DNA from: Synechococcus sp.
GTDB taxonomy: Bacteria > Cyanobacteriota > Cyanobacteriia > PCC-6307 > Cyanobiaceae
NCBI GenBank assembly: GCA_047284725.1
Contig: JBJBEO010000001.1
Span: 2,488,203 to 2,552,202 of the forward strand
Length of the DNA: 64,000 nucleotides
Reading direction: 5' to 3'
A program made the position numbers and the translations under genes. Under the pieces are notes generated by a model. It did not search any database and had not been told where the DNA came from. It saw only the letters and a list, made by a program, of their open reading frames with translations. This document shows positions 7,770-52,600 of the stretch, in pieces; within the stretch, counting starts at the first letter, position 1, and each line of letters begins with the position of its first letter.

Positions 7770-10748
7770 ATGCGTCCTGCCGCCGCCAAGACGAAGGACG
7801 TGTCCCGTCAGGAGCCTGTCAACCTCAGCGGTGGCTCTCTGGAGGACGTGATCCGTGTGCGCGGCGCTCGCCAGCACAACCTCAAGAATGTTGATGTCAC
7901 CATCCCCCGCAACAAGATGGTGGTGTTCACGGGGGTGAGCGGCAGCGGTAAGAGCTCCCTGGCCTTCGACACAATTTTTGCCGAGGGTCAACGTCGTTAC
8001 GTCGAAAGCCTGTCGGCTTACGCCCGTCAGTTCCTTGGCCAGGTGGATAAGCCTGACGTGGATGCCATCGAGGGGCTGTCACCGGCGATTTCGATCGATC
8101 AGAAATCCACCAGCCACAACCCCCGTTCCACGGTGGGCACGGTCACCGAAATCCAGGACTACTTACGCCTTCTCTTTGGCCGTGCTGGTGAGCCCCACTG
8201 CCCTCAGTGCGACCGGGCCATCCGGCCTCAGACCATTGATGAAATGGTCGATCAGATTCTCACGTTGCCTGAGGGCACCCGTTATCAGCTGCTTGCTCCT
8301 GTGGTGCGGGGCAAGAAGGGCACCCATGCCAAATTGATCAGTGGTCTGGCGGCTGAGGGCTTTGCCCGCGTGCGGGTGAACGGTGAAGTGCGCGAGCTCG
8401 CCGACAACATTGAGCTGGATAAGAACCACCTCCACAACATTGAAGTTGTGGTGGATCGTCTGGTGGCACGCGAGGGGATTCAGGAGCGCCTCACCGATTC
8501 GTTGCGCACTGCCCTCAAGCGCGGTGATGGGCTGGCGATTGTGGAGGTTGTGCCCAAAAAAGAGGAGCAGTTGCCCGAGGGATTGGATCGGGAGCGCTTG
8601 TATTCCGAGAACTTCGCCTGCCCGGAACATGGGTCGGTGATTGAGGAACTGTCACCGCGTTTGTTTTCGTTCAACAGCCCTTACGGAGCCTGTGACGATT
8701 GCCACGGCATTGGCCATCTACGCAAGTTCACCGCTGAGAGGGCTGTCCCCGATCCTTCCCTGCCGGTGTACGCCGCAGTGGCTCCCTGGGCGGAGAAAGA
8801 TAATTCCTACTACTTCTCGTTGCTGTATTCAGTCGGGGAAGCCTTCGGTTTTGAGATCAAAACGCCTTGGCAGGATCTCACCGATGAACAGAAAGACATC
8901 CTCCTCAATGGCAGCCGTGAGCCGATCCTGATCCAGGCCGACAGCCGCTACCGAAAAAGCGCCGGTTACACCCGTCCTTTCGAGGGCATTCTTCCCATCC
9001 TGCAGCGGCAGTTGCGGGATGCCAGTGGGGAGGCCATGCGCCAGAAGCTGGAGAAATATCTCGAGTTAGTGCCCTGTGCCAGCTGTGCTGGGCAACGACT
9101 GCGAGCTGAGGCTCTGGCTGTGCGGATCGGTCCGTTCCGGATCACGGAGCTCACAGCGGTGAGTGTGGGGCAGACCCTGGAGCGCATCGAACAGTTGATG
9201 GGCGTAGGGGCATCAGAAGGGTGTGAACCGTTGCTCACCCCCCGTCAGATTCAGATCGGGGACCTGGTGCTGCGGGAGATTCGCATGCGTCTGCGTTTCC
9301 TCCTCGACGTTGGCCTTGATTACCTCAGCCTTGATCGTCCGGCGATGACGCTGTCGGGCGGTGAAGCTCAGCGCATTCGCCTTGCCACGCAGATCGGTGC
9401 CGGTCTCACAGGTGTTCTCTATGTGTTGGATGAACCGAGCATCGGCTTGCATCAGCGCGATAACGACCGCCTGTTGGCCACGCTCGAGCGCCTCCGCGAT
9501 CTCGGCAACACCCTGGTGGTGGTGGAGCACGATGAAGACACCATTCGGGCAGCCGATCATCTGGTTGATATCGGCCCCGGCGCGGGTGTCCACGGAGGTC
9601 ACATCGTTGCGGAGGGCGACCTCAACACCTTGTTGAACGCAGAAGCGTCGCTGACGGGTGCTTATCTCAGCGGTCGGCGCTCGATTCCAACGCCACCGGA
9701 ACGACGCAGCGCCGGCAGTCGCAGCATCAAGTTGCTCAACTGCTCTCGCAACAACCTCTGCGACGTGAGTGTGGAGTTTCCCCTCGGACGCTTGGTGTCG
9801 GTCACCGGCGTGAGCGGCAGTGGCAAGAGCACGTTGGTGAATGAACTGCTCCATCCCGCTCTCGAGAATGGATTGGGTCACAAAGTGCCGTTCCCTGCTG
9901 GCCTTGGCGAGCTGCGTGGCCTCAAGTCAATCGACAAGGTGATCGTGATCGATCAGTCACCGATTGGTCGCACACCCCGATCCAATCCGGCCACCTACAC
10001 CGGTGCCTTCGATCCGATCCGTCAGGTGTTTGCCGCCACTGTGGAGGCGAAGGCCCGTGGTTATCAGGTGGGTCAGTTCAGCTTCAACGTCAAAGGGGGG
10101 CGCTGCGAGGCTTGCCGCGGTCAGGGTGTGAACGTGATCGAGATGAATTTCCTCCCCGACGTCTACGTGCAGTGCGACGTCTGTAAGGGAGCTCGTTTCA
10201 ATCGTGAGACCTTGCAGGTGACCTACAAGGGCCACACCATCGCCGATGTGCTCGAGATGACGGTGGAGCAGGCGGCAGATGTGTTCTCAGCCATTCCCCA
10301 GGCAGCCGATCGCTTACGCACGCTGGTGGATGTAGGCCTTGGCTACGTCAAGCTTGGCCAGCCAGCCCCCACGTTGTCGGGTGGCGAAGCGCAACGGGTG
10401 AAGCTGGCTACAGAACTTTCGCGCCGGGCAACGGGCAAGACGCTCTATCTGATCGATGAGCCCACCACTGGCTTGAGCTTTTATGACGTGCACAAGTTGA
10501 TGGATGTGATGCAGCGGTTGGTGGATAAGGGCAATTCGATCATCTGCATCGAGCACAACCTGGATGTGATTCGCTGTTCAGACTGGTTGATCGACCTGGG
10601 TCCGGAGGGAGGCGATAAGGGCGGAGAGATTGTGGTCTGCGGGACTCCGGAAGACGTGGCTCAGCATCCCACCAGCCATACCGGTCGCTACTTGGCCAAG
10701 GTGCTGGAGCAGCATCCACCTGAGGCTCTGGAGGCTGCTGCTGCGTAA
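7770..10748 (+). CDS. uvrA: Excinuclease ABC subunit A
   Basis: Two GVSGSGKS Walker A motifs, two LSGGEAQR signatures, Zn fingers. Confidence 0.98.
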   Translation: MRPAAAKTKDVSRQEPVNLSGGSLEDVIRVRGARQHNLKNVDVTIPRNKMVVFTGVSGSGKSSLAFDTIFAEGQRRYVESLSAYARQFLGQVDKPDVDAIEGLSPAISIDQKSTSHNPRSTVGTVTEIQDYLRLLFGRAGEPHCPQCDRAIRPQTIDEMVDQILTLPEGTRYQLLAPVVRGKKGTHAKLISGLAAEGFARVRVNGEVRELADNIELDKNHLHNIEVVVDRLVAREGIQERLTDSLRTALKRGDGLAIVEVVPKKEEQLPEGLDRERLYSENFACPEHGSVIEELSPRLFSFNSPYGACDDCHGIGHLRKFTAERAVPDPSLPVYAAVAPWAEKDNSYYFSLLYSVGEAFGFEIKTPWQDLTDEQKDILLNGSREPILIQADSRYRKSAGYTRPFEGILPILQRQLRDASGEAMRQKLEKYLELVPCASCAGQRLRAEALAVRIGPFRITELTAVSVGQTLERIEQLMGVGASEGCEPLLTPRQIQIGDLVLREIRMRLRFLLDVGLDYLSLDRPAMTLSGGEAQRIRLATQIGAGLTGVLYVLDEPSIGLHQRDNDRLLATLERLRDLGNTLVVVEHDEDTIRAADHLVDIGPGAGVHGGHIVAEGDLNTLLNAEASLTGAYLSGRRSIPTPPERRSAGSRSIKLLNCSRNNLCDVSVEFPLGRLVSVTGVSGSGKSTLVNELLHPALENGLGHKVPFPAGLGELRGLKSIDKVIVIDQSPIGRTPRSNPATYTGAFDPIRQVFAATVEAKARGYQVGQFSFNVKGGRCEACRGQGVNVIEMNFLPDVYVQCDVCKGARFNRETLQVTYKGHTIADVLEMTVEQAADVFSAIPQAADRLRTLVDVGLGYVKLGQPAPTLSGGEAQRVKLATELSRRATGKTLYLIDEPTTGLSFYDVHKLMDVMQRLVDKGNSIICIEHNLDVIRCSDWLIDLGPEGGDKGGEIVVCGTPEDVAQHPTSHTGRYLAKVLEQHPPEALEAAAA

Positions 10749-10896
10749 CAGGGCAGGGGCTTTTCAGGGGATCTGAGGGCTTAGGGAGAAGGGCTGGGCG
10801 TCAGGGATTGCTTGGATGTGATCTCTTGTGCCATCGCCTGCCTTTCCGTATTCGGTTTGAGTGGGCGAGAAAACCGGGGATAGGCATTGAGATCAT

Positions 10897-11279
10897 TCAT
10901 TCCTGACTTTTTCTTTGTCCTCGTCTCGGATGAATGGAATGTCGATTGGCAATGTAATGGCCGACTGTGGCGAATCCGCTTGCTCCAAGCCCTGTTAAGA
11001 CGGCTTCGGACCAAGCTTCACCAAAGTGTGATGGGTGAACCAAGTAATCGACCACTGCAGTGATCACTGCCAGTAAAACAATTGTTTTCCAGAATCGATT
11101 GACTCTTAAAATCTTTTTGGCGCAATGTACGTAGCGATGACGCCAAGGCTTACTTTGAGGGCTGTGAATGCATGGTCTCCGGTGATTTTTGAAACGTCAC
11201 CTTGAATCATGAACAGCATGCAAGATAGCCAGACTTCTCCTGTTCTTTCAATGAATTCAGGTAGCTCTAGGTCCTTCAA
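10897..11279 (-). pseudogene. Small multi-TM membrane protein gene split by a 1-nt frameshift
   Basis: 11279-11106: LKDLELPEFIERTGEVWLSCMLFMIQGDVSKITGDHAFTALKVSLGVIATYIAPKRF*; the -1 frame continues KKILRVNRFWKTIVLLAVITAVVDYLVHPSHFGEAWSEAVLTGLGASGFATVGH...* (stop 10897). Confidence 0.55.
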
Positions 11280-11500
11280 GTCAGCGACCAGTGATTGTTG
11301 GAATCATAGCCAATGGTTACTGTTTGACCACCTTGGTCTGCTTCAGCGACTGCTCAATGATCTTTGAGATTTTTAGCGGTCTTGGCTGTGTTGTGATCTC
11401 TACTCTGATCGGAAAATAAGTTTTACAAGACTGCCAGTTTCCAGGCAGGATGCACCCCTAACGGATGCTTCTCTGTCATTCAAGTATTAATATTGGCTGA

Positions 11501-11956
11501 TTAGAATGGACCATTGGCGTTCCCGTTGATGAATCCAGAAGGAAGATTGGAATATAGAATTTCCCAAAGACTTGGTCGCTTGAGGAGATCTCGTTTGGCC
11601 TCATCAATCAGTTGAGCTCGGCTGTTGTCATCGATTTCCAGTGCGTTGCATAAGCGATCGAATGCAAGTCGCTCATCGTGGTTCACTGAAAACTGGTAAT
11701 CTTCCCGTGATGAAGCAATGACCATATAGGCAAGCTTGGCTGTGAGCAATCTGTGGTCTTCATGGAGTTCAGTCACGAGCTTTTCGATGTGGTCTGGGTG
11801 ATTGAACTCAACAGCCCATGAGGGAATCGAGGCATCTTTCAAGTAACGTTGACTGAGGTCATCTAGTAGCTCTTCTTCTTCCGGTGCAACGTTTCCATCT
11901 GCAATCGCCATCAAATTGAGAATCTGAATCATGATCGCTGCTGAACGAAAATCCAT
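11501..11956 (-). CDS. TerB-like (tellurite resistance fold) protein
   Basis: LMAIADGNVAPEEEELL and VNHDERLAFDRL match the duplicated TerB A-D-G-x4-E pattern. Confidence 0.7.
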   Translation of the reverse strand: MDFRSAAIMIQILNLMAIADGNVAPEEEELLDDLSQRYLKDASIPSWAVEFNHPDHIEKLVTELHEDHRLLTAKLAYMVIASSREDYQFSVNHDERLAFDRLCNALEIDDNSRAQLIDEAKRDLLKRPSLWEILYSNLPSGFINGNANGPF

Positions 11957-11959
11957 CAC

Positions 11960-12260
11960 AGACTGAAGGCTTCCTCTTGTTTAACTCCTTAATCTCCTTT
12001 AGTGCCAATTTCTCTCTTTCTATCAAGCTTTCATCGCAACCAAGTTGCTTTGAGACCATCTGGGTGTCTTTTGATCAGCAGATTCCCTGCTTGCAACTGC
12101 ACTCCATCCCAGGTGAGATCGATTGATTCGTCCTTGTGCAGTCCGGTCTTTCACCATGGAGCACCTATGGAGACAACCAGCTCTCATCGGCCTTGAGATC
12201 CTCTTGCCTTCGCCTCACCGGCACCATCACTCGAATTGCCTGAAATGCTTCGTTTTGGTC
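11960..12260 (-). pseudogene. Possible degenerate tyrosine recombinase/integrase fragment
   Basis: Minus-strand frame reads KTGLHKDESIDLTWDGVQLQAGNLLIKR, resembling the box I (T/H)GLRxxExxxLxWxDVDL motif; flanked by stops, catalytic Arg appears as His. Confidence 0.4.
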
Positions 12261-12734
12261 GCCCAGTGCGGCTGGTGTTGAGGCTCTTTGACTTTGTTGA
12301 TGGCTCAATATCCTGCTTCTGTCTCCAGGTCACAAAGGCTTCTGTCTTTGTTTTGGTTCTTATTGGCTGTCCGTCCCACTGAACGCCCTGGTCCGCGTGA
12401 GTCTTGTCTGCCGGTCACTTGGACTCCATCAATCGCTTCAGTTCAGAAGATCCGATTCCTTTTTATCCACGAGGGGGGCGATCGCTGCTTGGTAATTTAT
12501 CCATTTCCCCCCTAATGGGTGTTGCTCCAGATCTCAGTCGAGATCACTTCCACCTTGCCAAACGTATTGGAGTGAGAGTTCACTTCTATCTGCCTCTGTT
12601 CAAGACCTATGGTTCATTTAGTTAATGTTTGATTCATATTACAGGTGCTATATTTGGCTAATGGCTCGCTTTTGCTGAATATCTTATATTTTGCTAGCCT
12701 TGGCAAAGAATGTTTGAGTAAAACTCTATAAAGC

Positions 12735-13889
12735 GTGACGATCCATCAAAAGTCGAGAGAAATTTTCACTAACGTGCGGAGTTTTTTTATTCCGTCAGTT
12801 GACGACTCTTCACCGGAACTTCTCGGTGATCAGTTTGTTGGTCTTTTCTGCTTAGTTGCGGCGTCTGTTCATTTTGTGATGGTTGTGACTTCTCAGCATG
12901 TGGTTGATGCGGGGATTTGGGAACGGTTATCGTTGCTTGTGGTGGCAGTTTGTTATGGCATCTGGCGACTTAGATGGAAATTTCCTGCTGCCGATCATCT
13001 ATCTCTCTCACGCAAGATAAGTCGGTTTTTGGCACTTTGGGTTTGTTTTCGTTGGTTGGCGATCTGGATGTCTCCAAATCCGGACACGTTATACATTAAT
13101 GTTGTTAGTGGATTGTTGTATATGCCACTATTACTTGCATGTCTTAATCTTTTAAGCATCGAAAGGCGAACTATTTTGCTTGTTACTATATGCTTTATCG
13201 TTTCACCCATACTGTTCAGCAATCAAATCTTATTACGCTTAACTCCTTTCCGTGACTGGCGCCTTAGTGTCAGTCTGGCCGGATTTTATTTGGTTTTTAG
13301 CTATCTTTTGTCTTCTATTCTTAGCTTAAAAGCCCAAGTCTCTAAGTTGACTGCAAGCAATGTGGTACTTGGCCATACTGCAATGACTGATTCGCTTACT
13401 CAATTACTCAATAGACGAGGTTTCGAGAATTTGCGTCAGCGCTTTAATCATCAAAATAGCGGGATTATTATGCTAGATGTTGATCATTTTAAGTTTATCA
13501 ATGATACACTAGGGCATGATATTGGTGATGCCGTCCTTGCGGCCCTTGCATCTACCATTCAGCAAGTGACTCGGACTGAAGACCTAGTGTCTCGTTGGGG
13601 TGGCGAGGAATTCTTGTTAATGGTGGGCTTGAATAAGGATGGTCGTGAAGCCGAAGCCTTGTTATTTCAATTGGCTACAAAAATTCTTGCTGTGATCAAG
13701 GATTTTAACTGGAATCAAGTCCACTCCGAGCTTAAAACTGTCACAGTAAGTGCTGGAATTATTGTGGTTAACCACGATATTGATTTTCGCCAGGCATTGA
13801 TCGCTGCTGATCTAGCAATGCTGAACGCTAAGCGCAACGGGCGTGATCAAGTTCACATAGGTGAAATAGAACATAATTCGAAGAATTGA
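12735..13889 (+). CDS. Membrane-bound diguanylate cyclase (multi-TM + GGDEF)
   Basis: ~6 hydrophobic helices, TDSLTQLLNRR, DVDHFKFIND, RTED I-site, GGEEF, AKRNGRD. Confidence 0.92.
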   Translation: MTIHQKSREIFTNVRSFFIPSVDDSSPELLGDQFVGLFCLVAASVHFVMVVTSQHVVDAGIWERLSLLVVAVCYGIWRLRWKFPAADHLSLSRKISRFLALWVCFRWLAIWMSPNPDTLYINVVSGLLYMPLLLACLNLLSIERRTILLVTICFIVSPILFSNQILLRLTPFRDWRLSVSLAGFYLVFSYLLSSILSLKAQVSKLTASNVVLGHTAMTDSLTQLLNRRGFENLRQRFNHQNSGIIMLDVDHFKFINDTLGHDIGDAVLAALASTIQQVTRTEDLVSRWGGEEFLLMVGLNKDGREAEALLFQLATKILAVIKDFNWNQVHSELKTVTVSAGIIVVNHDIDFRQALIAADLAMLNAKRNGRDQVHIGEIEHNSKN

Positions 13890-14515
13890 CGAGAATTTAA
13901 TTCGTGACTTTGATAATTATGTACGCCAATGATCTCTCATTTACATGAGCAAAATCCAGGATAGGTTTTTTATGCGGCTGTATACTTTGCTTTTCAATAT
14001 TGCAGAAGCTTCTTAGCATGCAGATGATGGCTGCGTTGGCCCTAGTGTTACAAGCTATTATGAGTGGTTTAACACTTGGCGACATAGAGGATATACACCT
14101 TAGGTTTACTGCCATTGATAACATCTAATCATCATGTTTAGTGATGGATTTGCTATAGCCCAAAAATTTGTCAATGATCAAATATTGATTAGCTAATAAT
14201 TTTTGGATTTGCGCTTTATTTTATATGTTATTGATCCAAAAAGAAAGTGGCTTGTGGCTCAGCACGATTGAGTTATTTCTATCTAAAATAATTGCAGTAT
14301 TGGATTGACATAAGAAACAGCCTACAGTATTTATGTAATTTTTAATAGAATTAAGCTGCACAAGGCCATAAAAGACCTTCGTATTTGCCTTTAAAATATT
14401 TAATTTAAGAAATCTATGCAAGGCCAAAGTTATTGCATCAGTTGGTGACATAGCTAGTGCTAACCATCCATTGCAATCTTTAGAGTTAAGAGGGCTTGGG
14501 ATTAAGGCTTAGATC

Positions 14516-15424
14516 ATGAAAAAAAATATTGGGTTTTTTAGCACCAAACTTGTTGCTATGACAATCAGTATCACCGCGCTCTTAGGTTGCGAAGTTGGTC
14601 GGCAACAGTCAACAATTATGCGTCATCAAAACTTCTCAAAACCAGACTGCTTTGGTGATCAATCACGGCAGGCACAAGTACGAAAAATTGGCATCGTTCC
14701 GCAATTCACTGCAAAGACAATATGGACAAAATGGGGCCCTCTATTAAGTGAACTCGGAAACAACACTAACCTATGCTTTCAAATTTATGCTGAGAGATCA
14801 ATACCCTCGTTTGAGGCACAGATTCTTAATGGCAAATACGATTATGCCTATATAAATCCAATTCATCAAGTTATGACAAAAGATCATTACGTTCCTCTAG
14901 TTAAAAACGGAAGCTCCCTACTTTCGGGCGTCATTATTGTTCATCCCGATTCAAAAATAGAGACGATCCACGATGCAGAGGGAAAAGATTTATATCTTCC
15001 AGCGCCTAATGCTTTTGGGGCATCAATTCTCGTGCAGCAAGAATTTCGAAAACTGAAGATCAAAATACATCCAATTTACGTAAGAACTCACACTAATGTT
15101 TACTCAGCAGTCGGTAAGGATAAGGAAGCGGTTGGCGGAATGATATTTCGTACTTTGGAAAAAGAAGAGGTACAACAAAAGCTTAATCTGAAAATACTAA
15201 AGCGAACTAAACAATATGTGCCTCATCCTTTTTCTGTTCATAGATTAATTCCAATTCATGAGCAAGAGCTGGTCAAGTCTGTAATGCTAGGTTTTGCCGA
15301 AAAGCCTAATTCTGCATTTTTATTGGAAAATGTACAGATCCCACAGCCCATTCCAGCAAATTATGTTGAAGACTATATGCAACTTGAGACAGTTATTTCG
15401 TCTAAATCTGAGCCTAAGAATTAA
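14516..15424 (+). CDS. PhnD/phosphate-phosphite-phosphonate-family substrate-binding lipoprotein (orphan)
   Basis: Lipobox-like LLGC, IGIVPQF, YDYAYINP, PAPNAFGAS, THTNVY, PHPFSVH; no permease or ATPase nearby. Confidence 0.8.
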   Translation: MKKNIGFFSTKLVAMTISITALLGCEVGRQQSTIMRHQNFSKPDCFGDQSRQAQVRKIGIVPQFTAKTIWTKWGPLLSELGNNTNLCFQIYAERSIPSFEAQILNGKYDYAYINPIHQVMTKDHYVPLVKNGSSLLSGVIIVHPDSKIETIHDAEGKDLYLPAPNAFGASILVQQEFRKLKIKIHPIYVRTHTNVYSAVGKDKEAVGGMIFRTLEKEEVQQKLNLKILKRTKQYVPHPFSVHRLIPIHEQELVKSVMLGFAEKPNSAFLLENVQIPQPIPANYVEDYMQLETVISSKSEPKN

Positions 15425-15437
15425 TGTATCGACTTGC

Positions 15438-17507
15438 TTAGGTCCCATAAATACTAATCATACTTCCAACTTGGCTTTTTGACTTGTAACACGCTTTGTC
15501 AGCGCGAGAAAGAGCTTCTTGCAGACCGTTAGTATTTGTCGAGTAGATTTCAGAAATTCCTATACTTGCGCCAATGCGAGATTCTGGATGATCAAGATGA
15601 ATACTTAGTTCATTAATTTTATCTATTAATTGTTTTGCTAGATTATTGCAGCTTTCAGCACTGCATTGCGTGAATAAAACACAAAATTCATCACCTCCAA
15701 ACCTTGCAGCTATATCAGTCTCTCTAATAGTTTGCTTAATTGACGCTGCAACCATTTCCAGTATTTTGTCTCCCATCTCATGTCCCATATTATCATTAAT
15801 AGTTTTAAAGCCATCTAAATCAATAAAAAGGAGTGAGTGGGTCAATATCTTACTGTTGCGTTGATTAGACAATTCAAGTTCTTTGATTTTTTCATTGAAT
15901 CCTCTCCTGTTTAATAGCTTTGTTAATTCATCATGCGTAGCTTTGTATTTTGCATCATTCTCTTCATTCGTCATTGTTAAGAACAACACTTGAGAACTGG
16001 CTACAGCTGCATTAAATCCAAGGATTTGGATTAAATTAAATTTCGTACCTGCGAGAATTGAGTCATCTCTGCAACCGTTAAGTGAAAGCCTACGCCCCAT
16101 GATATTGATGGAAACAGGTTCTAGAACGTAATCGTTCTGATTACACATGAGATTACCAAAACTTGCTAGACGTGTGGACATGCCAGGTAACGTTGTGTCA
16201 CTAATTTCAAAAGACCATTCTCTATTATTCTCATTATTAAGCTCTGTACTTAGTAACGCTTCAACGTCATAAACACCAACGGCAAATCCCTCTAATTTTC
16301 TCTGCTCGTTAAAGCTAGGAATGATCATTAATGAAGCAATACTGTCTTTTTCAGCGTCTTGAACAAGGTTGATTGGAGGTGTAAGGGTAGCTCGTTGACT
16401 ACGAACCGCTTCCTCCAGTGTTTTTTTCCTGACTGCGTCAGACATCAAATCCAAGCCAAGTGCATTTTCATTTCCTATGGTTGGATTCAAATAGGTGACT
16501 GGTGCGTAAACATCACGAATACCTGCGACAAGTGTTGACCCATTTGGAGACATTTGCATAATGTCGAAATCACTGATACCTGTCTCATCTCTGACTCTAT
16601 TGACAAACTCTTTCCTGTCCTTAAGATTTATAATAGGTGCCCATTCTAGTGCCCTAATCTCAGGATTTTGATTTAATAGTGGATGGGTAAACTGATTAAA
16701 TTCGTCTGGTGAAACGTAACTGGATGCACGTCTAAGGGCAATTGTTGAAAGAACGACCTGTTCTTGATTCTCAGTCTTATTTTTTAACTGGACAGAAACA
16801 TCTTCCAAGAAGCCTTGATCTCTAGATCTTAAAAGATCACTGTTTGTGATATATTGTTGGTGAAAAAGGTAAAGTCCAATCAGTGCAATTATCATGGGGG
16901 ATAGGATTCCTTTCCATGGGAGATGAAAAAGTTCTGTATACTTTGTTTTGAAAATTTTGAGGAATACTGGGGCTAAACAGATTGCTCCTGAACTATTGGC
17001 TCCCCATATAACCACCATGGATGTTAGTAAATTGATCTCTGTTGTCGAGTTAAATAATAATGTAAGTAGTTGGGGCAGAAGAAAAAATAAGGAGCCTGCA
17101 AAGCATCCAAATAATATAAATCGTATAACTAGATCTGAATTGACTGGTTCCCAGTCTTGATGGTGATTAGGATTGCAAACCTCCGCCCCTATCTTTGCAG
17201 CTAAAACAACACATAGGCTCGTCAAAAGAATTCCAGTAAAGCCTGCATCTATCGTGTACAGAGTTTGAGGCCATAACATCTGACAAACGACAGATGCCAG
17301 CCCTATGGAGCCGAGAACAGTATTTGAATAGCGTATTGTTGCTGCAAGAGCTAAACCCGCCGAAGGATTAAATAATGAATAACTACCGTCAATCGATAAT
17401 TTATTTCCAATCGAATATAAAAATATATAAGCTAAAAACACCAGTCCGTTTAAAATCAGCTGCCAACGCAGATGATTTGTCGGCCATGAAGGCCTTAGGA
17501 GTCGCAT
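15438..17507 (-). CDS. Diguanylate cyclase with MASE1-like TM region and CHASE sensor domain
   Basis: N-terminal TM bundle (FNPSAGLALA); CHASE motifs IRALEWAP, YAPVTYLNP, NENALGLDL, TPPINLVQD; RETD I-site and GGDEF. Confidence 0.9.
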   Translation of the reverse strand: MRLLRPSWPTNHLRWQLILNGLVFLAYIFLYSIGNKLSIDGSYSLFNPSAGLALAATIRYSNTVLGSIGLASVVCQMLWPQTLYTIDAGFTGILLTSLCVVLAAKIGAEVCNPNHHQDWEPVNSDLVIRFILFGCFAGSLFFLLPQLLTLLFNSTTEINLLTSMVVIWGANSSGAICLAPVFLKIFKTKYTELFHLPWKGILSPMIIALIGLYLFHQQYITNSDLLRSRDQGFLEDVSVQLKNKTENQEQVVLSTIALRRASSYVSPDEFNQFTHPLLNQNPEIRALEWAPIINLKDRKEFVNRVRDETGISDFDIMQMSPNGSTLVAGIRDVYAPVTYLNPTIGNENALGLDLMSDAVRKKTLEEAVRSQRATLTPPINLVQDAEKDSIASLMIIPSFNEQRKLEGFAVGVYDVEALLSTELNNENNREWSFEISDTTLPGMSTRLASFGNLMCNQNDYVLEPVSINIMGRRLSLNGCRDDSILAGTKFNLIQILGFNAAVASSQVLFLTMTNEENDAKYKATHDELTKLLNRRGFNEKIKELELSNQRNSKILTHSLLFIDLDGFKTINDNMGHEMGDKILEMVAASIKQTIRETDIAARFGGDEFCVLFTQCSAESCNNLAKQLIDKINELSIHLDHPESRIGASIGISEIYSTNTNGLQEALSRADKACYKSKSQVGSMISIYGT

Positions 17508-17712
17508 GGAAGGTAGTGGGATCTATATCACCATTATGAGTACATTTCTAGATCTTATTTTCTGCTTCATCAAAGCTTAAGTTATGAGGCTATAGAGGTC
17601 TTGAAAGCGTTAATATAGGGAGTAACAATTATTTCAATCGTTACTAGTCCTTGGCGCGGCGCTTGCTTTTTTGACTGTTGGGTCTTTGTCCTGTAAAGAA
17701 ATTCAATTAACG

Positions 17713-19746
17713 TCAGTAAAGAAAGCTTGGTTGTTGAGCTTTCCCAAATAAGTACCCTTGTCCAATTTTGTAGCCTATGTTTTCGAGGATGCTTCGCTGT
17801 AAAGTTGTTTCGATGCCCTCAGCAAGAACTTGGATTCCTAGCTCTTTGCAGGTCTGTGCTAGACATTTAACAACAACTCTTGCTTTTTTATCCGTCACCA
17901 TTAGTTTTGTAAATTCAACATCGAGTTTGACACTATCAACGAGCCCGCCTAGCAACCATTCAATACTGGAGTAACCGGTACCAAAATCATCAAGTGCAAT
18001 TTTCACACCAAGTTTTTTTATATTGTTAAGCCTTGAAAGTATAAGATCAGACCTTTTTAGTACGACTGTCTCTGTGATCTCAACAACAAGGTCTGAAAGG
18101 TCACAATTATGCTGCTTATTTAGCCTCAATATCAATTTGCTGATATCAGTATTCTTAAGGTGTGCAGGACTTATGTTGACCGATATTTTCCGTTTCAAGC
18201 CTGTGTCTTGAGTTTTCTTGAGTACGGAGAGTACATTGTTTATACAATAGCTCTCAATATTACCTATATCACCAGTATTTTCAGCGATTGGAATGAATTC
18301 AGCTGGCATGATCGTTTCACCATTGCTTTCCTCTGCCATCCTTACAAGTGCTTCTGCTCCATGGACTTCTCCATTCGATAAATTAATAAGTGGTTGATAG
18401 GCGACAATCAGCTTTCCATTGCTCAATCTTTTCCTGATAAGCTTCTTGATGTAATTTGCTCTTGTTGAAATTTTTTCAAGATAATCATCATAAAATGCAC
18501 AACTCCCTTTCTGGTTTGACTTTGCATAGTACATTGCACGATCTGCTTTCTGTAAGAAATCTTCTGCTGAACTGGTCTCACCCTGATGCTTAATTGCAAC
18601 TCCAATGCTCACGGACACTTTAGAGACTAATGCTTGAGGATGTAGAGTCGATAATTGATTGAGGCTTTCATTGAGTCGCCTTGAAATCTCTAGGACTGAT
18701 ATATTGTCATTAATGCGTTTTGCAAGAATAGCAAATTCATCTCCTCCTATCCTGGCAATTAAATCTCCATCTCTTACAGAGGCCTTGAGATAGTTGGCTA
18801 CTTCTTTCAAAAAATAGTCGCCATGTTCGTGGCCAAAGCCGTCGTTGAGAAGTTTAAAGTTGTCGATATCGCAATAGTAAAGTGCAAAATTGGTGTTTTC
18901 TATGCCTGAAAGTAGTGCCAGTTCTTTAATAAAGCATCGTCGATTAGCCAACCCCGTTAGCGAATCAGTCGCTGCGTATATTGATAGATTTTGTTCATTT
19001 TCCACTCTCTGCGATGTGTCTCGTTGAATTGAGATCCAATGCGTAAAGAGATCTCCATTCATGGCTGAAGGGGACGCTTTCAGTTCAACCCAATGTTTGG
19101 AATTATCTTTTTTCCGGTTAAGAATCTCCATGCTTGACTCTCTCCATAGCCTTAAACTGCTTCCAAAATCTTTAAGTGTCGTTACATCAGAGTCTTCACT
19201 CTGGAACAATCTCGGACTCATGCCCATTAACTCTTGATTCGAGTAACCAGTGGCACTGATTGACGCTTTATTTGCATAGATAATTAGCGGTCCAGGCGTG
19301 TCGAGCGGCTCTGCTAATGTAATGAGACAGCAGTCAGCAATATCATCAAGAGCTGATTTGAAGAACTGAATGGCATTTTCTAACCCTATATTTTTGCGTG
19401 AATGATTGCTCTGATTCTCCAGTAGTGCTATCCCTAGCCCTGTATGCGTTAGGAAAAACCTAACAATCCATTTTTTTTCAATCAGCGGCGTAGTATTTAT
19501 TTCGTAAAGCTTTGGCAGTTTGTCGCTGTATCTAAAATCTTCATAGACGGATCTTAATTCTTTGATGGTTTCAAAGAGATTAATCTCTTGATCGTCGCAT
19601 TGGTTGCTTATCAGTATTTCTTTTGCGGCTTGGTTTGTGTAGGTTATTTGACCATTCAGTTTGAAAAGGAAGATTGGATCGGATGGAAGCGCGAGCAAAT
19701 CTCCATAAAAACTATCTATTGTGTTTTTTCTGGGTGTGGAAATCAT
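17713..19746 (-). CDS. PAS-GGDEF-EAL hybrid diguanylate cyclase/phosphodiesterase
   Basis: PAS (IIYANKASISATGYS...SPRLFQ...WISIQRD), GGDEF, EAL motif GAEALVR, DDFGTGYSS, AEGIET, QGYLFGK. Confidence 0.93.
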   Translation of the reverse strand: MISTPRKNTIDSFYGDLLALPSDPIFLFKLNGQITYTNQAAKEILISNQCDDQEINLFETIKELRSVYEDFRYSDKLPKLYEINTTPLIEKKWIVRFFLTHTGLGIALLENQSNHSRKNIGLENAIQFFKSALDDIADCCLITLAEPLDTPGPLIIYANKASISATGYSNQELMGMSPRLFQSEDSDVTTLKDFGSSLRLWRESSMEILNRKKDNSKHWVELKASPSAMNGDLFTHWISIQRDTSQRVENEQNLSIYAATDSLTGLANRRCFIKELALLSGIENTNFALYYCDIDNFKLLNDGFGHEHGDYFLKEVANYLKASVRDGDLIARIGGDEFAILAKRINDNISVLEISRRLNESLNQLSTLHPQALVSKVSVSIGVAIKHQGETSSAEDFLQKADRAMYYAKSNQKGSCAFYDDYLEKISTRANYIKKLIRKRLSNGKLIVAYQPLINLSNGEVHGAEALVRMAEESNGETIMPAEFIPIAENTGDIGNIESYCINNVLSVLKKTQDTGLKRKISVNISPAHLKNTDISKLILRLNKQHNCDLSDLVVEITETVVLKRSDLILSRLNNIKKLGVKIALDDFGTGYSSIEWLLGGLVDSVKLDVEFTKLMVTDKKARVVVKCLAQTCKELGIQVLAEGIETTLQRSILENIGYKIGQGYLFGKAQQPSFLY

Positions 19747-20391
19747 GTCAACAACCTCTCTTCCTTAATTGTATGCGGTTCTAACGATTAGAACAATGAA
19801 TCTTTTAGAGTAAATTAAAATTGCCAATTTTATTGCCGTATTTTTTAGTTGATCCAATTGACCATTGTTTGTATTTTTCTTAGAGTTTAAGGAGAAATTG
19901 ATAAGAGATTGATTGTCGTTGATCTATGACCTTTATTCGAGAAGTCGTTCATAGCCAAGGCTTGACTTGACTAATTCCATGTTAAACGATCGGTTGGGGC
20001 GTGGCATTGGGACGTTGAGGTGCTGATGGTCTTGAGATGCGTGATAGACCTAAGCTCATCCCTTTTTTTGCATCGATTCATAGCGATTTATTATTTGGCT
20101 TGTCATTGATACTTTGGTTTTTGTAATGCGATGCATGCCTACAAAGGCCTGTGCGTTGTTGATTCAAACGCAAGCATCAGCAATCATCTCTTTAAATCAT
20201 ATTTTGTCGGTATAGCTTCGAACTGCTTGATTATAAATAGTACAAAATATCACCCTATTCTCAGGGCTTTATGGGAATCCTGGCTTGCTTGTGTCTTGGT
20301 CTCTCGTCCATCAATGTATCATTGGCTAATAATTTTCTAAGGACTTTCTGAGGCAATAATCATCGGATCATAGTTTTTCCTTTTTATAAGA

Positions 20392-22222
20392 TTGCCGACT
20401 AAAATATGTTGTTTCTATGATTTAATCCTAGCTGTATTTGATGTTGTGGCAGATCGACTTCTGCTTCAAGGTAATAAAGTTATCTGGATGGGTGGTCTTG
20501 CAGCCCTTGGTTTTCTGATCAATCTTTATCCCATCCCCCTTTTCTTTAGCGTCGCCCTTTTGTTTGGTTCGATTGCACCTGTTGCTTCGATCCTTGTGTG
20601 AGGTAGCTGGTGGTCGATCCCAATGGCCTCGATTGTTAGTCTGCCAACGTTGCAGTTCAGGGGACATCCCTATGCGAGTATTAATTTTACTTCTGAAGCT
20701 TTTTCCCTTTGGCAATTGACCAGAAAAAGATCGCCCTCTTCTTTTCTGGATCATAAAATTATTAGGCTTGATATTGTCTTTTGGCTCACGGTGGGCGTAC
20801 TACTTAATTTTATTTTTTACTTTAATATACTAAGCCTCAACCTTGTATCGTCGCTGACTGTCTATCTCAATCAAGTAATAAATGGCATTTTAAACACGTG
20901 TATTGTTTCCATCATCTTTCTCGTTGCTTCCATCTATCGACTTAAATGTACAAGCAAGGTGTCAATTAAGGTCTTGATCGTTGGCTCCATTCTCGGGTCA
21001 ATTCTTGCATCTTCGTTGTTGATCTCAACAATATCCAATTTTTTATCCTATCAGACATTGTGCATGGTCAAATTGTTCGATTCGCCGACATAGCGAGACT
21101 TGTAGTTAGTTCAGATGACAGAGCTGAACCATTAGAGCGTCGTAATCTCGAGCCTCTAAGCATTGTTACAGCGCGCGACCAGAAAAGGTCAGCATCCTGC
21201 ATTCCAGTCGGTGATGATCTGGAAAAAGCCTCTGTCATTTCGTCGTCTAAAAATCAGTGCCTAAGCATTCTTCTGGCAAATAATAGTTCATCTGGTATTA
21301 AGGAGTGTGTGAATGGTAAGTGGTATTTTGAATCTTTGGCCATGCCAAATCTAGTCGTTTCGAAACAGGAGCCCAGTCGTGAAGGTATCCTACAAATACA
21401 GCAAAATAGTTCCTATCTGCTTTTGCCACTGTTTTTGACTTCCTTCGCCGGTTATGGATTAAGTCGCTATATTTCATCATGGCTTAGTGCTCAGTTTGCG
21501 ACTGTTTCAAGTCATGTTCAGTTAACTGCTCCAAGGGAGATTTCAAGCGCTTCTCCCATTGCCGACCATGTTTTCGTCGACAAGTCTGCGCAATTGAATG
21601 AAATAAAAGTAATTGGCCAAGCGATTGCGAGTCATGTCAATACGAACAGACTGATTACAGAAGATTTGGCAGATATCAATGAAAGGCTGCAGGTGACGAG
21701 GAAAGAGCTTGAGTTGGAGTCGATTACTGATCGGTTGACGGATGTCTTCAATCGGCGCGCATTTGATCAGTGGATCGCCGTTGAATGCGAAAACGCTAAA
21801 CGCCAGAACACTCAACTTAGTTGCTTGTTGTGTGACGTTGATCATATTAAACAGATAAATGATTCCTGCGGTCATCAAATTGGCGATGCTGCCCTGAAAG
21901 CTGTAGCTGAATGTGTCAAAAGCCATCTGCGCCTAAACGATAAATTTTTCCGTATTGGTGGTGATGAATTTGCGGTTTTAGTCGTGGGTCAGCACGTCAA
22001 CAAGGGTGATGAGCATTGGCTAAGAAACTCTGCGAACTTGTGAATGGTTTGGAAATTGGTGAACAAGATCGCCGCTTTTCAATCAGTTGCAATATTGGTG
22101 TTGCGAGATTCAATCATGTGATCGATTCCACTTCTTCTTTGATTGCCAAAGTGGATAAAGCTCTTTATGAGAGCAGGCTTAATGGCCGTAATACAGTCTT
22201 TGTTTCAACCTATCTGATCTAA
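20392..22222 (+). pseudogene. Decayed membrane-sensor diguanylate cyclase
   Basis: ORFs 20392-20601 and 20623-21093 share a frame, separated by TGA; frame change near 21060-21093; the GGDEF part (to 22043) continues in another frame (22016-22222: SCNIGVA...DKALYESRLNGRN). Confidence 0.8.
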
Positions 22223-22413
22223 GTCTATGTCTTTTGCTTCAAATCAAGCTTGCCACTACTTCCGTCTTCTTAGGCGTGTGATTCCCCGTCCGTCGACGAT
22301 ATTGTGATTGAGAAAGTCCAGTCGGGATCTTGAGCCGTTGAGCTGGTCGGTGCTTTCAGCAGGTATTCTTTGCTGCGCTTCCGAGGCGGTTTTCGAGCAA
22401 GATCAGCTCAGAG

Positions 22414-23946
22414 TTGCCCGGTAACTGTGTGACCACGATCGCCCGCCGCTGTCTTCGGATTCTTGCTTTGACGGCATTCAGTGGGGGGCTCCTAATGCTG
22501 GCTCCCGTTCGCTCCGCTGCGCTTGAGGCGTTGCGGATGCGTCTGCCGCTTCTGGAAAGCGACATCACCCTCGAACTCGGTGATGCAGAGACTGCTCGCG
22601 ATCTCCTCCAGGTCAATCCTGATCTGGCGGAGCTCGACCGTGCCGGAGAGGGGGCGGTGACGAAAGTTCTGGAGCAGGTGCTCACGGCGCCTTTGCCGCA
22701 GGTGACCAAGGGTTTCCTGGATCAGTCAGCCGGTCAGCCCCTGTTTGAGCAGGCCTTGCTGGCTGCATCTGGGTTGATCCAGGTGGATGGGGTCGCCGCG
22801 CCTCTCAATGGCCGTGATCTCACAACTGCCTTGCAGCTGGCCTACAGCGAGGGCCAGCCCCACTTGCTCGGCGTCCTGCGGCGTCTCCCAGGAAGCACCG
22901 CCTCGATCGACCTGCAGGCCCTGATGTTTTATGCCAATCGACTCAGTCGTCATCAGGCTCAGGCCAAGCAGCTGATTCAGGCCGCTCAATCTCAGCCTGC
23001 GCCTGCGCCTGAGTTGTGGGCTGCCGTGCAGGCGGCTGGCGGCTGGCGGCGACGTGAGGCAACACTGGTGGTGGCCCATCGGTCTCATCCCCTTGAGATC
23101 GTGAGTTTCCAACCGTTGCAAGAGGCCAATGGGCATGTGGTGGTGATTTCCCACGGTCTCTGGGACGAACCGGCCAGTTTTGAAGCCTGGGCCCAATGGT
23201 TGGCCTCGCGCGGTTACACCGTGCTGCTGCCCTTGCACCAAGGTAGTGATCTTGCCCAGCAGCAGGCGATGTTGAGTGGCGAGCTGCCCCCGCCACCGGC
23301 CGATGAATTGCGGCGTCGACCACAGGATGTAACGGCTCTTCTTGACGGGGTGGCAGGCGGTGAGTTGTTGCCCGGAGCTCAGCTCAACACCGAGGCGGTG
23401 GCCATGGTGGGGCATTCCTGGGGTGCGACCACCACGCTTCAAGTGGCCGGTCTCCGCACCACCGATACCAAGTTGATGGCTCGTTGTCAGGACCTTCGCG
23501 ACCCTGAACGCAATCTCAGCTGGGTGCTTCAGTGCAGCTGGTTGCAGTCAGCGTCCGACACCGCGATGTCCGATCCCCGCATCCGTGTGGCGGTGGCGGT
23601 GAGTCCACCTCTGCGTCTGCTGTTTGATGCCGGCAGCGGCCATGAGCTGACGGCTCCGGTGTTGCTGGTGAGTGGAAATCGCGATTGGCTGGTGCCTTCT
23701 GGGCCTGAGGCGATCACACCTCTGCGTCGCAGCTCATCGCTCGCGAACGGGCATCGGTTGGTGCTTGCCTCCGGTGGTGGACATTTCAACCTGCGTGGAC
23801 CTGCCGGTCTTGAGCCGCCTGTGCTGGCTCCACTGATCGAAGCCTGGATCAACCAGACACTGCAGCCCGAGGCCGCTCTGCGTTTCAACGGAGGACGTTG
23901 GGGCAGCGTCCGCATTCCGCTGGTGGATGTCACCCCTCAGCTTTGA
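22414..23946 (+). CDS. Alpha/beta hydrolase with DUF1400-like N-terminus
   Basis: VISHGLW, GHSWG nucleophile elbow, GGHFNL; start uncertain. Confidence 0.85.
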   Translation: MPGNCVTTIARRCLRILALTAFSGGLLMLAPVRSAALEALRMRLPLLESDITLELGDAETARDLLQVNPDLAELDRAGEGAVTKVLEQVLTAPLPQVTKGFLDQSAGQPLFEQALLAASGLIQVDGVAAPLNGRDLTTALQLAYSEGQPHLLGVLRRLPGSTASIDLQALMFYANRLSRHQAQAKQLIQAAQSQPAPAPELWAAVQAAGGWRRREATLVVAHRSHPLEIVSFQPLQEANGHVVVISHGLWDEPASFEAWAQWLASRGYTVLLPLHQGSDLAQQQAMLSGELPPPPADELRRRPQDVTALLDGVAGGELLPGAQLNTEAVAMVGHSWGATTTLQVAGLRTTDTKLMARCQDLRDPERNLSWVLQCSWLQSASDTAMSDPRIRVAVAVSPPLRLLFDAGSGHELTAPVLLVSGNRDWLVPSGPEAITPLRRSSSLANGHRLVLASGGGHFNLRGPAGLEPPVLAPLIEAWINQTLQPEAALRFNGGRWGSVRIPLVDVTPQL

Positions 23947-49679: not shown

Positions 49680-52600
49680 ATGTCTGCGCTTTTAGATCTT
49701 GGCTTCTTTGGTTCAAAGAAAAAGAATCATCTTCTCGACACTCTCGACGGTCAGTTCGTTAATCCCAGCAATGCTCAATCTCGGTCTAATTTTGCTGTAA
49801 ATAGTGAGATTGTAGATTTATCTTACCCTACTCTTTGTAGTTGTTCGTATTGTTGCGGCCAAGTAGCTACAACGAGTCATTTCGATAACAGGCCAGGTCA
49901 AGCTGATGATAAGATTCCGCCGTTTGTTGATGTAGGAAATGGCAAAAAAGTAGCCGAGCTTGATGCATACAACGCAGCAACTGACTACTCTTTTAGCAGC
50001 ACATCTCAGCAGCAGTCCTGGAGTGAAGGCGAAAGTATCACGCTGACCTGGAGCATTGTTCTGGATGGCACAACAATTTTTGCAGCCTATCCAGGCGAAG
50101 GACAAGAGACGGGAGGGAGCAATCTTCAGGCAAAACTGACCGCACTCTATGGAAGCGAGGAGATTTGGCTGTCTTTATTCCAGCAATCATTTGACCGAAT
50201 ATCATCGATCAGTGGCGTTAATTATGTTTATGTCGACTATGACGATGGCGCATCCATAGGTGGCACTAATAATACCGGGGTGGATGGAGTAAGGGCGGAT
50301 ATTCGCATTGGCGGTATAACAATAGACGGCGCTGGTGGGATTTTAGCTTACAATTATTTTCCCGATTACGGTGATATGGTTATAGATACTTCAGAGCTTG
50401 AAGGTCAAGGATATTTCACAAGCACGGGTTCAAATTCACTGGCTTTTAGGAATATGATCCAACATGAAGCTCTCCATGGCTTAGGAATTTCCCATACAGA
50501 AAGCTCTGATTCCAGTTTTCTCATGGAGCCATTCATTAATACAAGCTTTGATGGCGTTCAATACGATGACATCTCGGCTGTGCAGAGTCGGTATGGTGAT
50601 GCCCTTGAGCAAGGTGCAGGAAATAACAGTTTTTCAACAGCATACGATCTTGGCCTGGCGAGTTCCAGCTTGAGCATTGGTTTTGATTCCATTGATATGC
50701 GCGTTGAGCCTGATGAGGTCAGTTTTTACTCGATTCATAATGCCTCTGATGTTGATTATTTTTATTTCGGTATCAGCCAAGCCTCTATACTATCTCTCAC
50801 GCTGACGCCTACTGGGCCTAGCTATCGACAATCACCTCAAGGAGGTGATGAGTTTTTCTATGACGCCTCGAGTCAGAACAATCTTGGCTTTAATGTTTAT
50901 GACTCCAGCCAAAATCTAATTGTAGAAGTTGACAATGGGTCGCTTGGTTTTCAGGATGCTTGGAGCAGTGATTTTGCTCTTGCCGGCAATTATTACGTAA
51001 AAATCTTTGGGACGTCTGGTGTGTTTGACACATACCAGAGTTATCAATTTGATATTGCTTTAGAACCAGCGACTCCTAATCAATCACCAACAGCAAGCAA
51101 TGATGATGTGCAGATACAGGAAGATACATCGGTTAGCATTGATGTTTTGTTGAATGATAGCGATCCAGATGCCGATATCCTCGTGATTTCAAGCTTTGAC
51201 ACGAATTCATTGCAGGGGGGGCAAGTTGTTCTCAATCAGGTCACTAATGAGCTTGAGTATACCCCAGTCTTGAATTTTTTTGGTACAGATCAATTCACGT
51301 ATCAAGTCAGTGATGGTAACGGTGGCTTCGACACTGCAACTGTTCAGATTAATGTGCTCGCTGTCAATGACGATCCTGTTGCCAATAATGACACAGCCAC
51401 AACAGAACAAGAAACTCCGGTCATCGTCAATGTTCTTGCCAACGATGAGGATGTAGATGGTGATGCATTAGAGCTGATGAGCACCTCAGAGCCGTTAAAT
51501 GGGTCGGTATCCATTAGCAATGGAGAAGTTGTGTACACTCCCAATTCGGGTTTTACGGGTGATGATTCATTCACTTATATCGTGTCTGATGGTCTACTCA
51601 GCAGCTCTGCCGAAGTGACCATTACTGTTAATCCTATGAGCGAAGTGGTCACCGCTCTAGATGCTGAGCGAGTAGATGGTGATTTCGGTAATTACATTGA
51701 AAATACCAGTGTTGAAGGAACTTTTGTCAAAGGTGATGGAATTAGCGCAGTGCTTAGAGAGGAGATTCAGCCGGTCACTGGAGGGAGAAAGCCAAAAAAC
51801 GGCAGTGTCTTAGATCGCGTTTGGGAATTTTCAGGGCTTAATTCAGCAACTTCCTTCACGGTTACTGCATCGCTTGATGGTTTCGATCAAGATGAGATCC
51901 AGTTCTCTTATTCAACGGATCTTTCTGGTGGATGGATCGATTTCTCGGCTATCCGAGTCAATTCATCCTCTTTGACCACCTATACACAAGAAGGCCTTTC
52001 CCTGTCGGGAACAGTGTATGTAAGAGCTGTTGACACTGACCGATCTCCATCCAATGGCAATAGCACGCCAGATCTTTCTGAACTTTCCATTGATTTTATG
52101 GGTTTTGAGCAGGTGAATGATCCCAGTAATGGTGGGCCCGGGTCTCTGACAGCCATCGGTGGAGATCCAGTCGTTGGTTCAACACTAGTCGCGCCTGAAG
52201 TGATTGGGGATCCAGATGGATTTACCAAGTATCTTGAATACAAGTGGTATGTCAGCGGTACTGAAGTAAAAACGTATGTTCCAGGTTCTGAGGGTAATCC
52301 AGATCTATTGGTTTCTGAAGATTATTTAGATTTAGGTAAAGAGATTACTGTTGTAGTCAGATACTTAGATGGTGAAGGATACGAGGAGAGTGTGACATCC
52401 GAATCAGTGACAATTTCTCTCCCGGCTCCTGGTAATGTTATTGAATTCACCGCTGACAGAGATGAGTTGTTGGGAGTAGAAAATAGCGTCGATTTGTTTA
52501 CGTTGAATAATCTGACTGACGCGCTTGTTGGCGGTGGCAGGAATCCAAGCACTGACAGCATTACTGGGCTTGAGCTCAGTTCAGATAAGTTGGATTTTAC

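Follow-up and report, generated by a model that had tools for sequence, protein, structure and literature searches.

A probable patchwork island of c-di-GMP enzyme genes at uvrA in a marine Synechococcus-type genome with thirteen sites of this kind

The uvrA locus and its insertion

The window considered here, a 64-kb stretch of contig JBJBEO010000001.1 of Synechococcus sp. (assembly GCA_047284725.1), contains a block of about 11.7 kb between uvrA and an alpha/beta-hydrolase gene, which encodes enzymes of signalling by c-di-GMP (cyclic diguanosine monophosphate; Table 1). The GC content of the block is 0.409 (10749-22420), against 0.598 in uvrA, 0.630 in the hydrolase gene and 0.594 genome-wide, which bears out the initial annotation of an AT-rich block just after uvrA. 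Four genes with a GGDEF domain had been annotated and were found: DGC1 to DGC4 (DGC, diguanylate cyclase), of which DGC3 has an intact EAL domain and DGC4 is decayed by a stop and two frameshifts. The earlier gene list was incomplete, as it lacked a gene for a Phosphonate-bd solute-binding protein (SBP) and a TerB-like open reading frame (ORF).

The accessory status of the block, an insertion at uvrA, follows from the genus relatives: in 14 of 15, uvrA and the hydrolase gene adjoin, with no block between them. Orthologues of uvrA, with 89-96% identity, were present in 16 of the 18 genus genomes searched; one of these 16 loci (L017) was dropped from the count as its contig ends inside uvrA. The synteny check proposed in the initial annotation thus places the block outside the syntenic core. 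In the closest relative, G010, whose UvrA is 96% identical, uvrA is directly followed by low-GC DNA of another sequence (L002:1-346; the contig stops 346 bp beyond uvrA), which suggests reuse of the site.

With its compositional deviation, accessory genes and break in core synteny, the block corresponds to a marine Synechococcus genomic island. It does not correspond to a self-contained mobile element such as an integrative and conjugative element, an integron or a tycheposon. The ORF list, Pfam and scans for repeats and transfer RNA (tRNA) genes revealed no integrase, transposase, tRNA gene or intact or long terminal repeats in the block, and no tRNA genes in the whole window. Repeats within the block are confined to the self-similarity of GGDEF domains and chance pairs. 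An Rfam scan of 10500-22600 gave one chance-level match and no riboswitch, promoter and terminator counts were at or under the shuffled expectation, and relatives of DGC3 were not found in viral contigs.

The right edge of the block may preserve a trace of the insertion. The 42 nt before the hydrolase start match the uvrA ends of 11 of the 15 relatives at 22-26 positions (shuffle mean about 16.5), a level reached by at most 1 in 150 shuffles per relative, in a comparison whose anchor and length were picked after the match had been seen and whose relatives are kin. An unanchored local alignment for a duplicated uvrA end gave p=0.02 in one of 16 comparisons, which is not significant. The 42-nt remnant is probably a decayed duplicate of the uvrA end.

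Table 1. Features of the uvrA locus, and candidate receptor genes elsewhere in the genome. Plain coordinates refer to the window; aa, amino acids; I-site, RxxD site; PDE, phosphodiesterase; GT2, glycosyltransferase family 2.
Feature	Position	Strand	Basis and remarks
uvrA, left core flank	7770..10748	+	992-aa ORF
AT-rich insertion, ~11.7 kb	10749..22386	.	GC 0.409; ORF list and Pfam
Small membrane-protein gene, two frames	10897..11279	-	Translations
TerB-like ORF	11501..11959	-	152 aa; Pfam PF05099 at 18.3 bits, under the cut-off of 24.4
DGC1	12735..13889	+	384 aa, intact; unnamed MASE-like membrane sensor and GGEEF, RTED I-site
Phosphonate-bd (PF12974) SBP	14516..15424	+	302 aa; Pfam 116 bits
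DGC2	15438..17507	-	689 aa, intact; MASE1-like membrane region, CHASE, GGDEF, RETD I-site
DGC3/PDE	17713..19746	-	677 aa, soluble, intact; PAS-like, PAS, GGDEF (RDGD) and complete EAL
DGC4 pseudogene	20488..22222	+	Membrane sensor, coiled region, GGDEF; three frames map onto the intact wild protein P0187
Probable decayed remnant of former uvrA 3' end	22387..22428	+	Anchored 42-nt comparison
alpha/beta-hydrolase, right core flank	22429..23946	+	Pfam; directly 3' of uvrA in 14/15 relatives
Five stand-alone PilZ-type genes	L329:4879-5283, L328:4957-5292, L328:7039-7392, L327:5932-6651, L351:4047-4547		Canonical motifs
Cellulose-synthase-like GT2	genome 598521-600533; L325:8521-10533		Degenerate PilZ region, without RxxxR and with A for D

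Genes of the block

The GGDEF domains of DGC1, DGC2, DGC3 and DGC4 score 116, 137, 139 and 95 bits in Pfam (cut-off 23.8). As annotated, all four have the GG(D/E)EF signature and, five residues upstream, an RxxD site (RTED, RETD, RDGD and RLND, respectively). Such RxxD sites limit GGDEF proteins. When a diguanylate cyclase is defined by PF00990 over cut-off together with GG(D/E)EF, DxDxFKxxND and DxLTxLxNRR, DGC1 to DGC3 show every element; in DGC4 the motifs are present (F replaced by I) and the gene is broken. The C-terminal motif reads YKSKSQVG in DGC2 and K..GR or K..QKG in the other three.

The different sensory inputs that had been annotated were recovered in part. CHASE in DGC2 and PAS in DGC3 exceed their Pfam cut-offs, and membrane sensors are present. 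The assignment of MASE1 did not hold: PF05231 has no match in DGC2 at E<=0.05, and it was detected only in a DGC2 paralogue at genome 698054-700099 (30.5 bits), whose N-terminus is 20% identical to that of DGC2 (E=0.007). The membrane region of DGC2 may be called MASE1-like at most. In the Atlas, DGC1 leads to unnamed and MASE2 clusters at 0.90-0.91, and every match of the DGC4 sensor is below 0.9.

The EAL domain of DGC3 (PF00563, 191 bits) has all seven motifs scored for an EAL phosphodiesterase (ExLxR, N, ExTE, DDFGxG, KxD, EGxE and QG). These motifs are invariant across six DGC3 homologues (alignment A1), with the catalytic motifs unchanged down to 38% identity. The double-PAS N-terminus is matched in 24 of 200 genomes of the family (Cyanobiaceae). 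A role of DGC3 as a LOV photoreceptor was rejected. The LOV motif GxNCRFLQ carries a cysteine; the second PAS domain of DGC3 is LOV-like but reads GMSPRLFQ, and all seven aligned proteins have no cysteine.

The lesions of DGC4 are a premature stop (20599-20601) and frameshifts near 21057 and 22016. Wild contigs have one extra base at 21057, and the intact protein (P0187, 578 aa) belongs to a wild cluster of ten members.

The SBP gene has homologues at 21 loci in 20 of 300 family genomes (L101-L121). The next gene on the same strand encodes a membrane sensor-GGDEF protein at 19 of these loci; at one of the other two it encodes a histidine kinase that shares this sensor, and at the last the sequence is unrelated. 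The partner sensor of these SBP-cyclase operons has no Pfam name. Such a co-oriented cognate pair, of the NspS-MbaA type, is missing in the block, where the SBP gene ends 13 bp from the convergent DGC2 and the conserved C-terminal tail is gone. When the 57,618 reading frames of the genome were searched with a profile of the 19 partner sensors, none matched (the lowest E was 1), which rules out DGC4 or another gene of the genome as the cognate partner. A PDB search with the SBP gave one weak match to PhnD (E=2.5e-5), which offers no pointer to the ligand. The genome also holds three further pairs of a binding protein (NMT1/SsuA/urea-like) and a cyclase, at L063:9104-11427, L066:7192-9564 and L072:9580-12020.

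The two small membrane-protein frames near the left end of the block, with no Pfam match and no second copy in the genome, are probably one split gene. Outside the block, a second low-GC region of the window (49680-52868, plus strand) holds the gene for a protein of 1,062 aa that may be secreted to the cell surface; its domains are of the M10 peptidase, Ig-like and cadherin-like types.

Genome-wide inventory

In the genome (2.58 Mb), 22 GGDEF domains exceed the Pfam cut-off; EAL is matched 10 times, and an HD-GYP protein is encoded as well. Its 24 GGDEF/EAL genes lie at 13 loci, 18 of them within 9 of 29 low-GC regions; the block contributes four and the other 20 are elsewhere. By gene GC content, 21 of the 24 are below 0.55, and two are core-like at 0.60-0.62. 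The GG(D/E)EF signature is kept in 18 of the 22 GGDEF domains and RxxD in 13 of these 18, so that an RxxD site in all four block domains is not unusual.

In the 45 other species of the genus, 0-5 GGDEF domains were counted each, and 35 species have none (13 of the 46 genomes in this count are under 90% complete or over 5% contaminated). This agrees with the annotated poverty of marine picocyanobacteria in c-di-GMP enzymes and is consistent with the available portions of two reports (PMC3747582, PMC10124867). GGDEF occurs in 148 of 300 genomes of the wider family, several of which have 20-48 candidates, at most 11 per genome being scored in this survey. The genome is therefore a GGDEF outlier in its genus, not in its family. 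With the uvrA block as one of thirteen such sites, signalling in this lineage is likely organised as a network across the genome and not as a single module that was imported.

Receptors and candidate output

The initial annotation saw no effector. None was found within the block, which has no c-di-GMP receptor; elsewhere, the genome does encode PilZ proteins. Four stand-alone PilZ proteins are over the Pfam cut-off (22.5 bits) and a fifth scores 20.2 bits; all five lie outside the window and have the receptor motifs RxxxR and D/NxSxxG, which makes them candidate c-di-GMP receptors. Across 200 family genomes, GGDEF is present in 60 of 61 PilZ-positive genomes and PilZ in 1 of 100 GGDEF-negative ones, the genomes being kin rather than independent and some PilZ matches being fused to a synthase. 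A single-sequence fold of one PilZ protein reached a predicted local distance difference test score (pLDDT) of 37, too low to be informative.

The cellulose-synthase-like protein, encoded by a core gene, was considered as a direct receptor, which is unlikely given its degenerate PilZ region; cyclase-free members of the genus have orthologues of it (60%). Beside a locus for type I secretion, with genes for an ATP-binding cassette (ABC) protein and HlyD and a 4,776-aa ORF, lies a 227-aa ORF with one loose MshEN-type motif. A gene for a HAMP/GAF-like HD-GYP phosphodiesterase (L352:8116-11013) lies about 5 kb from this locus.

The description of the block as a self-contained module was not upheld. 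It holds only 4 of the 24 genes at 13 loci, its SBP is without the usual cyclase, and the combination of maker, breaker and receptor, recurring across taxa, was not found; the block recurs only within the species. In genome G063, a locus at L320:6677-15501 has a PilZ gene beside a gene of the GGDEF-EAL type and, in a divergent operon, glycosyltransferase-like and GAF-GGDEF genes; it qualifies better than the uvrA block as a candidate self-contained module.

Origin of the block genes

The four GGDEF domains of the block are 31-36% identical to one another, close to the mean of 32% over all domains of this genome. In a tree of 380 domains, with poorly supported deep nodes, their common ancestor is the root, and they do not form one clade. 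Tandem duplication of one cyclase is ruled out by this tree and these identities. For three block genes, the closest paralogue lies elsewhere in the genome. In the tree, the partner of DGC1 is a paralogue at genome 2372219 (support 0.997), and that of DGC2 is at 698054 (support 0.72). The DGC1 paralogue (2372219-2373271; L072:4219-5271) is broken here and intact (404 aa) in a wild cluster of 28 members.

Among the matches listed, the best full-length match of the same architecture within the family exceeds the best non-cyanobacterial one for DGC3 (434 vs 298 bits), DGC2 (209 vs 103 bits) and wild DGC4 (251 vs 111 bits), the non-cyanobacterial set having been drawn with DGC3 and DGC1 patterns only. 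These listed matches suggest that the nearest full-length relatives of DGC2, DGC3 and DGC4 are picocyanobacterial and do not come from a distant donor. The N-terminus of DGC1 was found in none of 300 family genomes; it is 49% identical to that of the paralogue in this genome, and its sensor resembles four unnamed metagenome proteins at 52-58%. A metagenome scan with DGC1 and a genome scan with alignment A1 returned, among the matches listed, only generic GGDEF domains and generic matches, respectively.

In genome G029, orthologues (54-62%) of three other island genes of this genome are clustered beside an efflux-pump gene. The same site in this genome holds a different SBP-cyclase pair. The cluster therefore stands at a non-matching site, and cassettes appear to be shuffled among island sites. 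The genes of the block would thus have been gathered piecemeal from a picocyanobacterial (Cyanobiaceae) island gene pool, and a patchwork of picocyanobacterial island cassettes is the best reading of the block. One point favours the annotated import as a unit: within the species, the block persists as a unit at the same site. The mutually unrelated domains, the three genes with paralogues elsewhere and the picocyanobacterial relatives speak against it.

Occurrence in metagenomes

Parts of the block were found in 18 metagenome runs from 10 studies, and six distinct runs were aligned to it. A sponge run (X4) and a coral run (X5) cover the block almost continuously, and X3 and X7 in patches; in one example of near-continuous cover, a stretch of 5,496 bp from DGC1 to DGC3 shows 231 differences. 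Wild contigs bridge uvrA into the island, and one X6 contig bridges the island into the hydrolase gene.

Wild copies of DGC1, the SBP, DGC2 and DGC3 show 93-97% protein identity, with block DNA differing by 4-5%. In the DGC4 region, the DNA differs by 12-13% and the protein by 19-26%. These values would fit purifying selection on DGC1 to DGC3 and drift on DGC4. Sponges filter picoplankton and only two studies gave near-continuous cover, so no association with sponge or coral hosts is claimed.

Interpretation of the block

Each intact enzyme of the block probably senses its own signal and feeds one c-di-GMP pool common to all, with the RxxD site limiting the enzyme and PilZ adaptors reading the pool. 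After integration at the 3' end of uvrA, cassette replacement would have left the SBP gene stranded. Synthesis of c-di-GMP is predicted for the three intact GGDEF proteins, all coupled to sensors, and for DGC3 its degradation as well. The cues would be membrane or periplasmic ones for DGC1 and DGC2 and a cytoplasmic PAS ligand for DGC3, each enzyme being damped by its own RxxD site. Their inputs would feed a genome-wide pool common to about 20 other such enzymes, which the stand-alone PilZ proteins encoded elsewhere would probably read. The least certain step is the output, for which cell-surface stickiness is the most probable candidate, most likely brought about via PilZ adaptors and type I secretion of the 4,776-aa protein.

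Several observations weigh against these shared inputs from shuffled cassettes. DGC1 has no placeable relative beyond this genome and unnamed metagenome proteins, and a closer distant donor could escape the non-cyanobacterial set. Direct outputs are weak: in addition to the degenerate synthase domain, no Pfam match to MshEN or ComFB was found in the genome, and PilB has no MshEN motif. Two cyclase genes, DGC4 and the DGC1 paralogue, are decayed here, so some members are dispensable. Wild copies of the stranded SBP are 94% identical, and the gene is still intact. Contigs from two studies, of sponge (X4, X6) and coral (X5, X8), have the whole block with unchanged gene order and location, at about 95% identity. 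Near-identical DGC1, SBP, DGC2 and DGC3 genes and an intact DGC4 all lie on contigs of 19,355 bp, records read as one contig. The cluster may therefore be under selection as a whole.

This persistence, together with the four intact GGDEF genes and the SBP on contigs of one length, is what a coherent local make/break module under selection would predict. The SBP would have been rewired to the CHASE or the DGC4 sensor, and DGC3 would reset a local pool; the contig size of 54,254 bp shared by DGC3 (76% identity) and DGC4, and alterations of the SBP at otherwise conserved positions, also point in this direction. Such a module is nevertheless unlikely. The genes alternate in orientation without a shared operon, their combination was not seen in any family locus examined, and 20 more enzymes are encoded elsewhere in the genome. 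This genome has DGC4 only in broken form, and an identical 156-aa fragment of it is recorded in a genome of 2,574,287 bp. Common descent is expected to keep genes linked within a species; such linkage is compatible with a selected local module as well.

The pseudogene DGC4, the split DGC1 paralogue, the stranded SBP, the split small gene and the lack of the usual arginine in the C-terminal motif of DGC2 could instead mark near-neutral island cargo that is being lost, with little c-di-GMP signalling in vivo. This is quite improbable, as DGC1 to DGC3 are intact and conserved in the wild despite the DNA differences, DGC4 diverges far more, most GGDEF domains of the genome keep their signature, and PilZ receptors co-occur. 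An ancestral picocyanobacterial network kept here, lost in the sister species and drifting towards AT in place would agree with the picocyanobacterial homologues, the GGDEF genes in half of the family, the two genes of core-like GC content and the available portion of PMC2441476, which leaves loss open for some islands, but is the least probable explanation in view of the empty uvrA-hydrolase junction in 14 of 15 relatives, the probable uvrA-end duplicate that marks an insertion, the low GC content of 21 of the 24 genes and the orthologues at other sites in G029.

The reading as separate inputs to a common pool can be extended to a more far-reaching one, which is a tentative possibility. A coastal or reef lineage of the marine Synechococcus type may have used island cassettes to reassemble a complete lifestyle switch based on c-di-GMP and otherwise absent from the genus, with 24 enzymes, five stand-alone PilZ adaptors and a giant secreted adhesin, in order to aggregate or settle on the surfaces of sponges and corals. 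The uvrA island would then be the largest input cluster, and its SBP would be rewired to a new sensor.

Relation to known systems and significance

Neither the parts of the block nor its kind of locus is new; the true exception in the genus is the expansion across the genome. According to the available portion of Agostoni et al. 2013 (PMC3747582), the coastal Synechococcus sp. CC9311 has five c-di-GMP proteins, and five other marine Synechococcus and twelve Prochlorococcus have none. The present genome resembles CC9311 as a marine Synechococcus-type genome with GGDEF/EAL genes. Unlike CC9311, it has 24 of them and HD-GYP, nearly all in islands, a number near the 20 listed in the same source for the freshwater S. 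elongatus.

Enomoto et al. 2023 (PMC10124867), in the part available, describe most marine strains as lacking these enzymes and the receptors as poorly studied. The Thermosynechococcus aggregation system SesA/B/C-XcsA treated there is likewise a case of several make/break enzymes in a unicellular cyanobacterium, and a cellulose-synthase-like GT2 is present here too. Unlike that system, the block has no cyanobacteriochrome GAF domain, the PilZ region of the synthase is degenerate, with orthologues in GGDEF-free members of the genus, and the candidate receptors are stand-alone PilZ proteins.

As a deviant accessory block between core genes, with long intergenic gaps and few relatives sharing its genes, the insertion is similar to the marine Synechococcus islands of Dufresne et al. 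2008 (PMC2441476) and Dore et al. 2020 (PMC7522525), as far as the available portions of these reports extend. It differs from them in its cargo of second-messenger enzymes: GGDEF is not mentioned in the main text of PMC2441476, nor are diguanylate, c-di-GMP or uvrA in that of PMC7522525.

Receptors controlled by SBPs are reviewed by Matilla et al. 2021 (PMC8050422), whose available portion includes NspS-MbaA, ScrB-ScrC (GGDEF/EAL) and AioX-AioS (a Phosphonate-bd SBP with an sCache-like kinase). The SBP homologues in the relatives, directly before a membrane sensor-GGDEF gene (19/21) or a kinase with the same sensor (1/21), are comparable to NspS-MbaA and AioX-AioS. None of the examples given in that portion pairs a Phosphonate-bd SBP with a cyclase, and in the block the partner is missing. 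A literature search of incomplete coverage returned no account of this island or of so GGDEF-rich a marine picocyanobacterium.

It is the genome-wide pattern, not the island alone, that carries the interest of this genome, whose 22 GGDEF domains are at least four times as many as in any of the 45 sister species. According to reviews, c-di-GMP is dispensed with by most marine Synechococcus and Prochlorococcus, and this genome clearly departs from that rule. The lineage offers a test case for the regaining of a second-messenger network from island genes. Concrete candidates for c-di-GMP receptors in cyanobacteria are the small stand-alone PilZ proteins, whose occurrence follows that of GGDEF in the family. 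The pattern also bears on whether picocyanobacteria regulate their stickiness, and thereby their sinking, grazing and capture by filter feeders.

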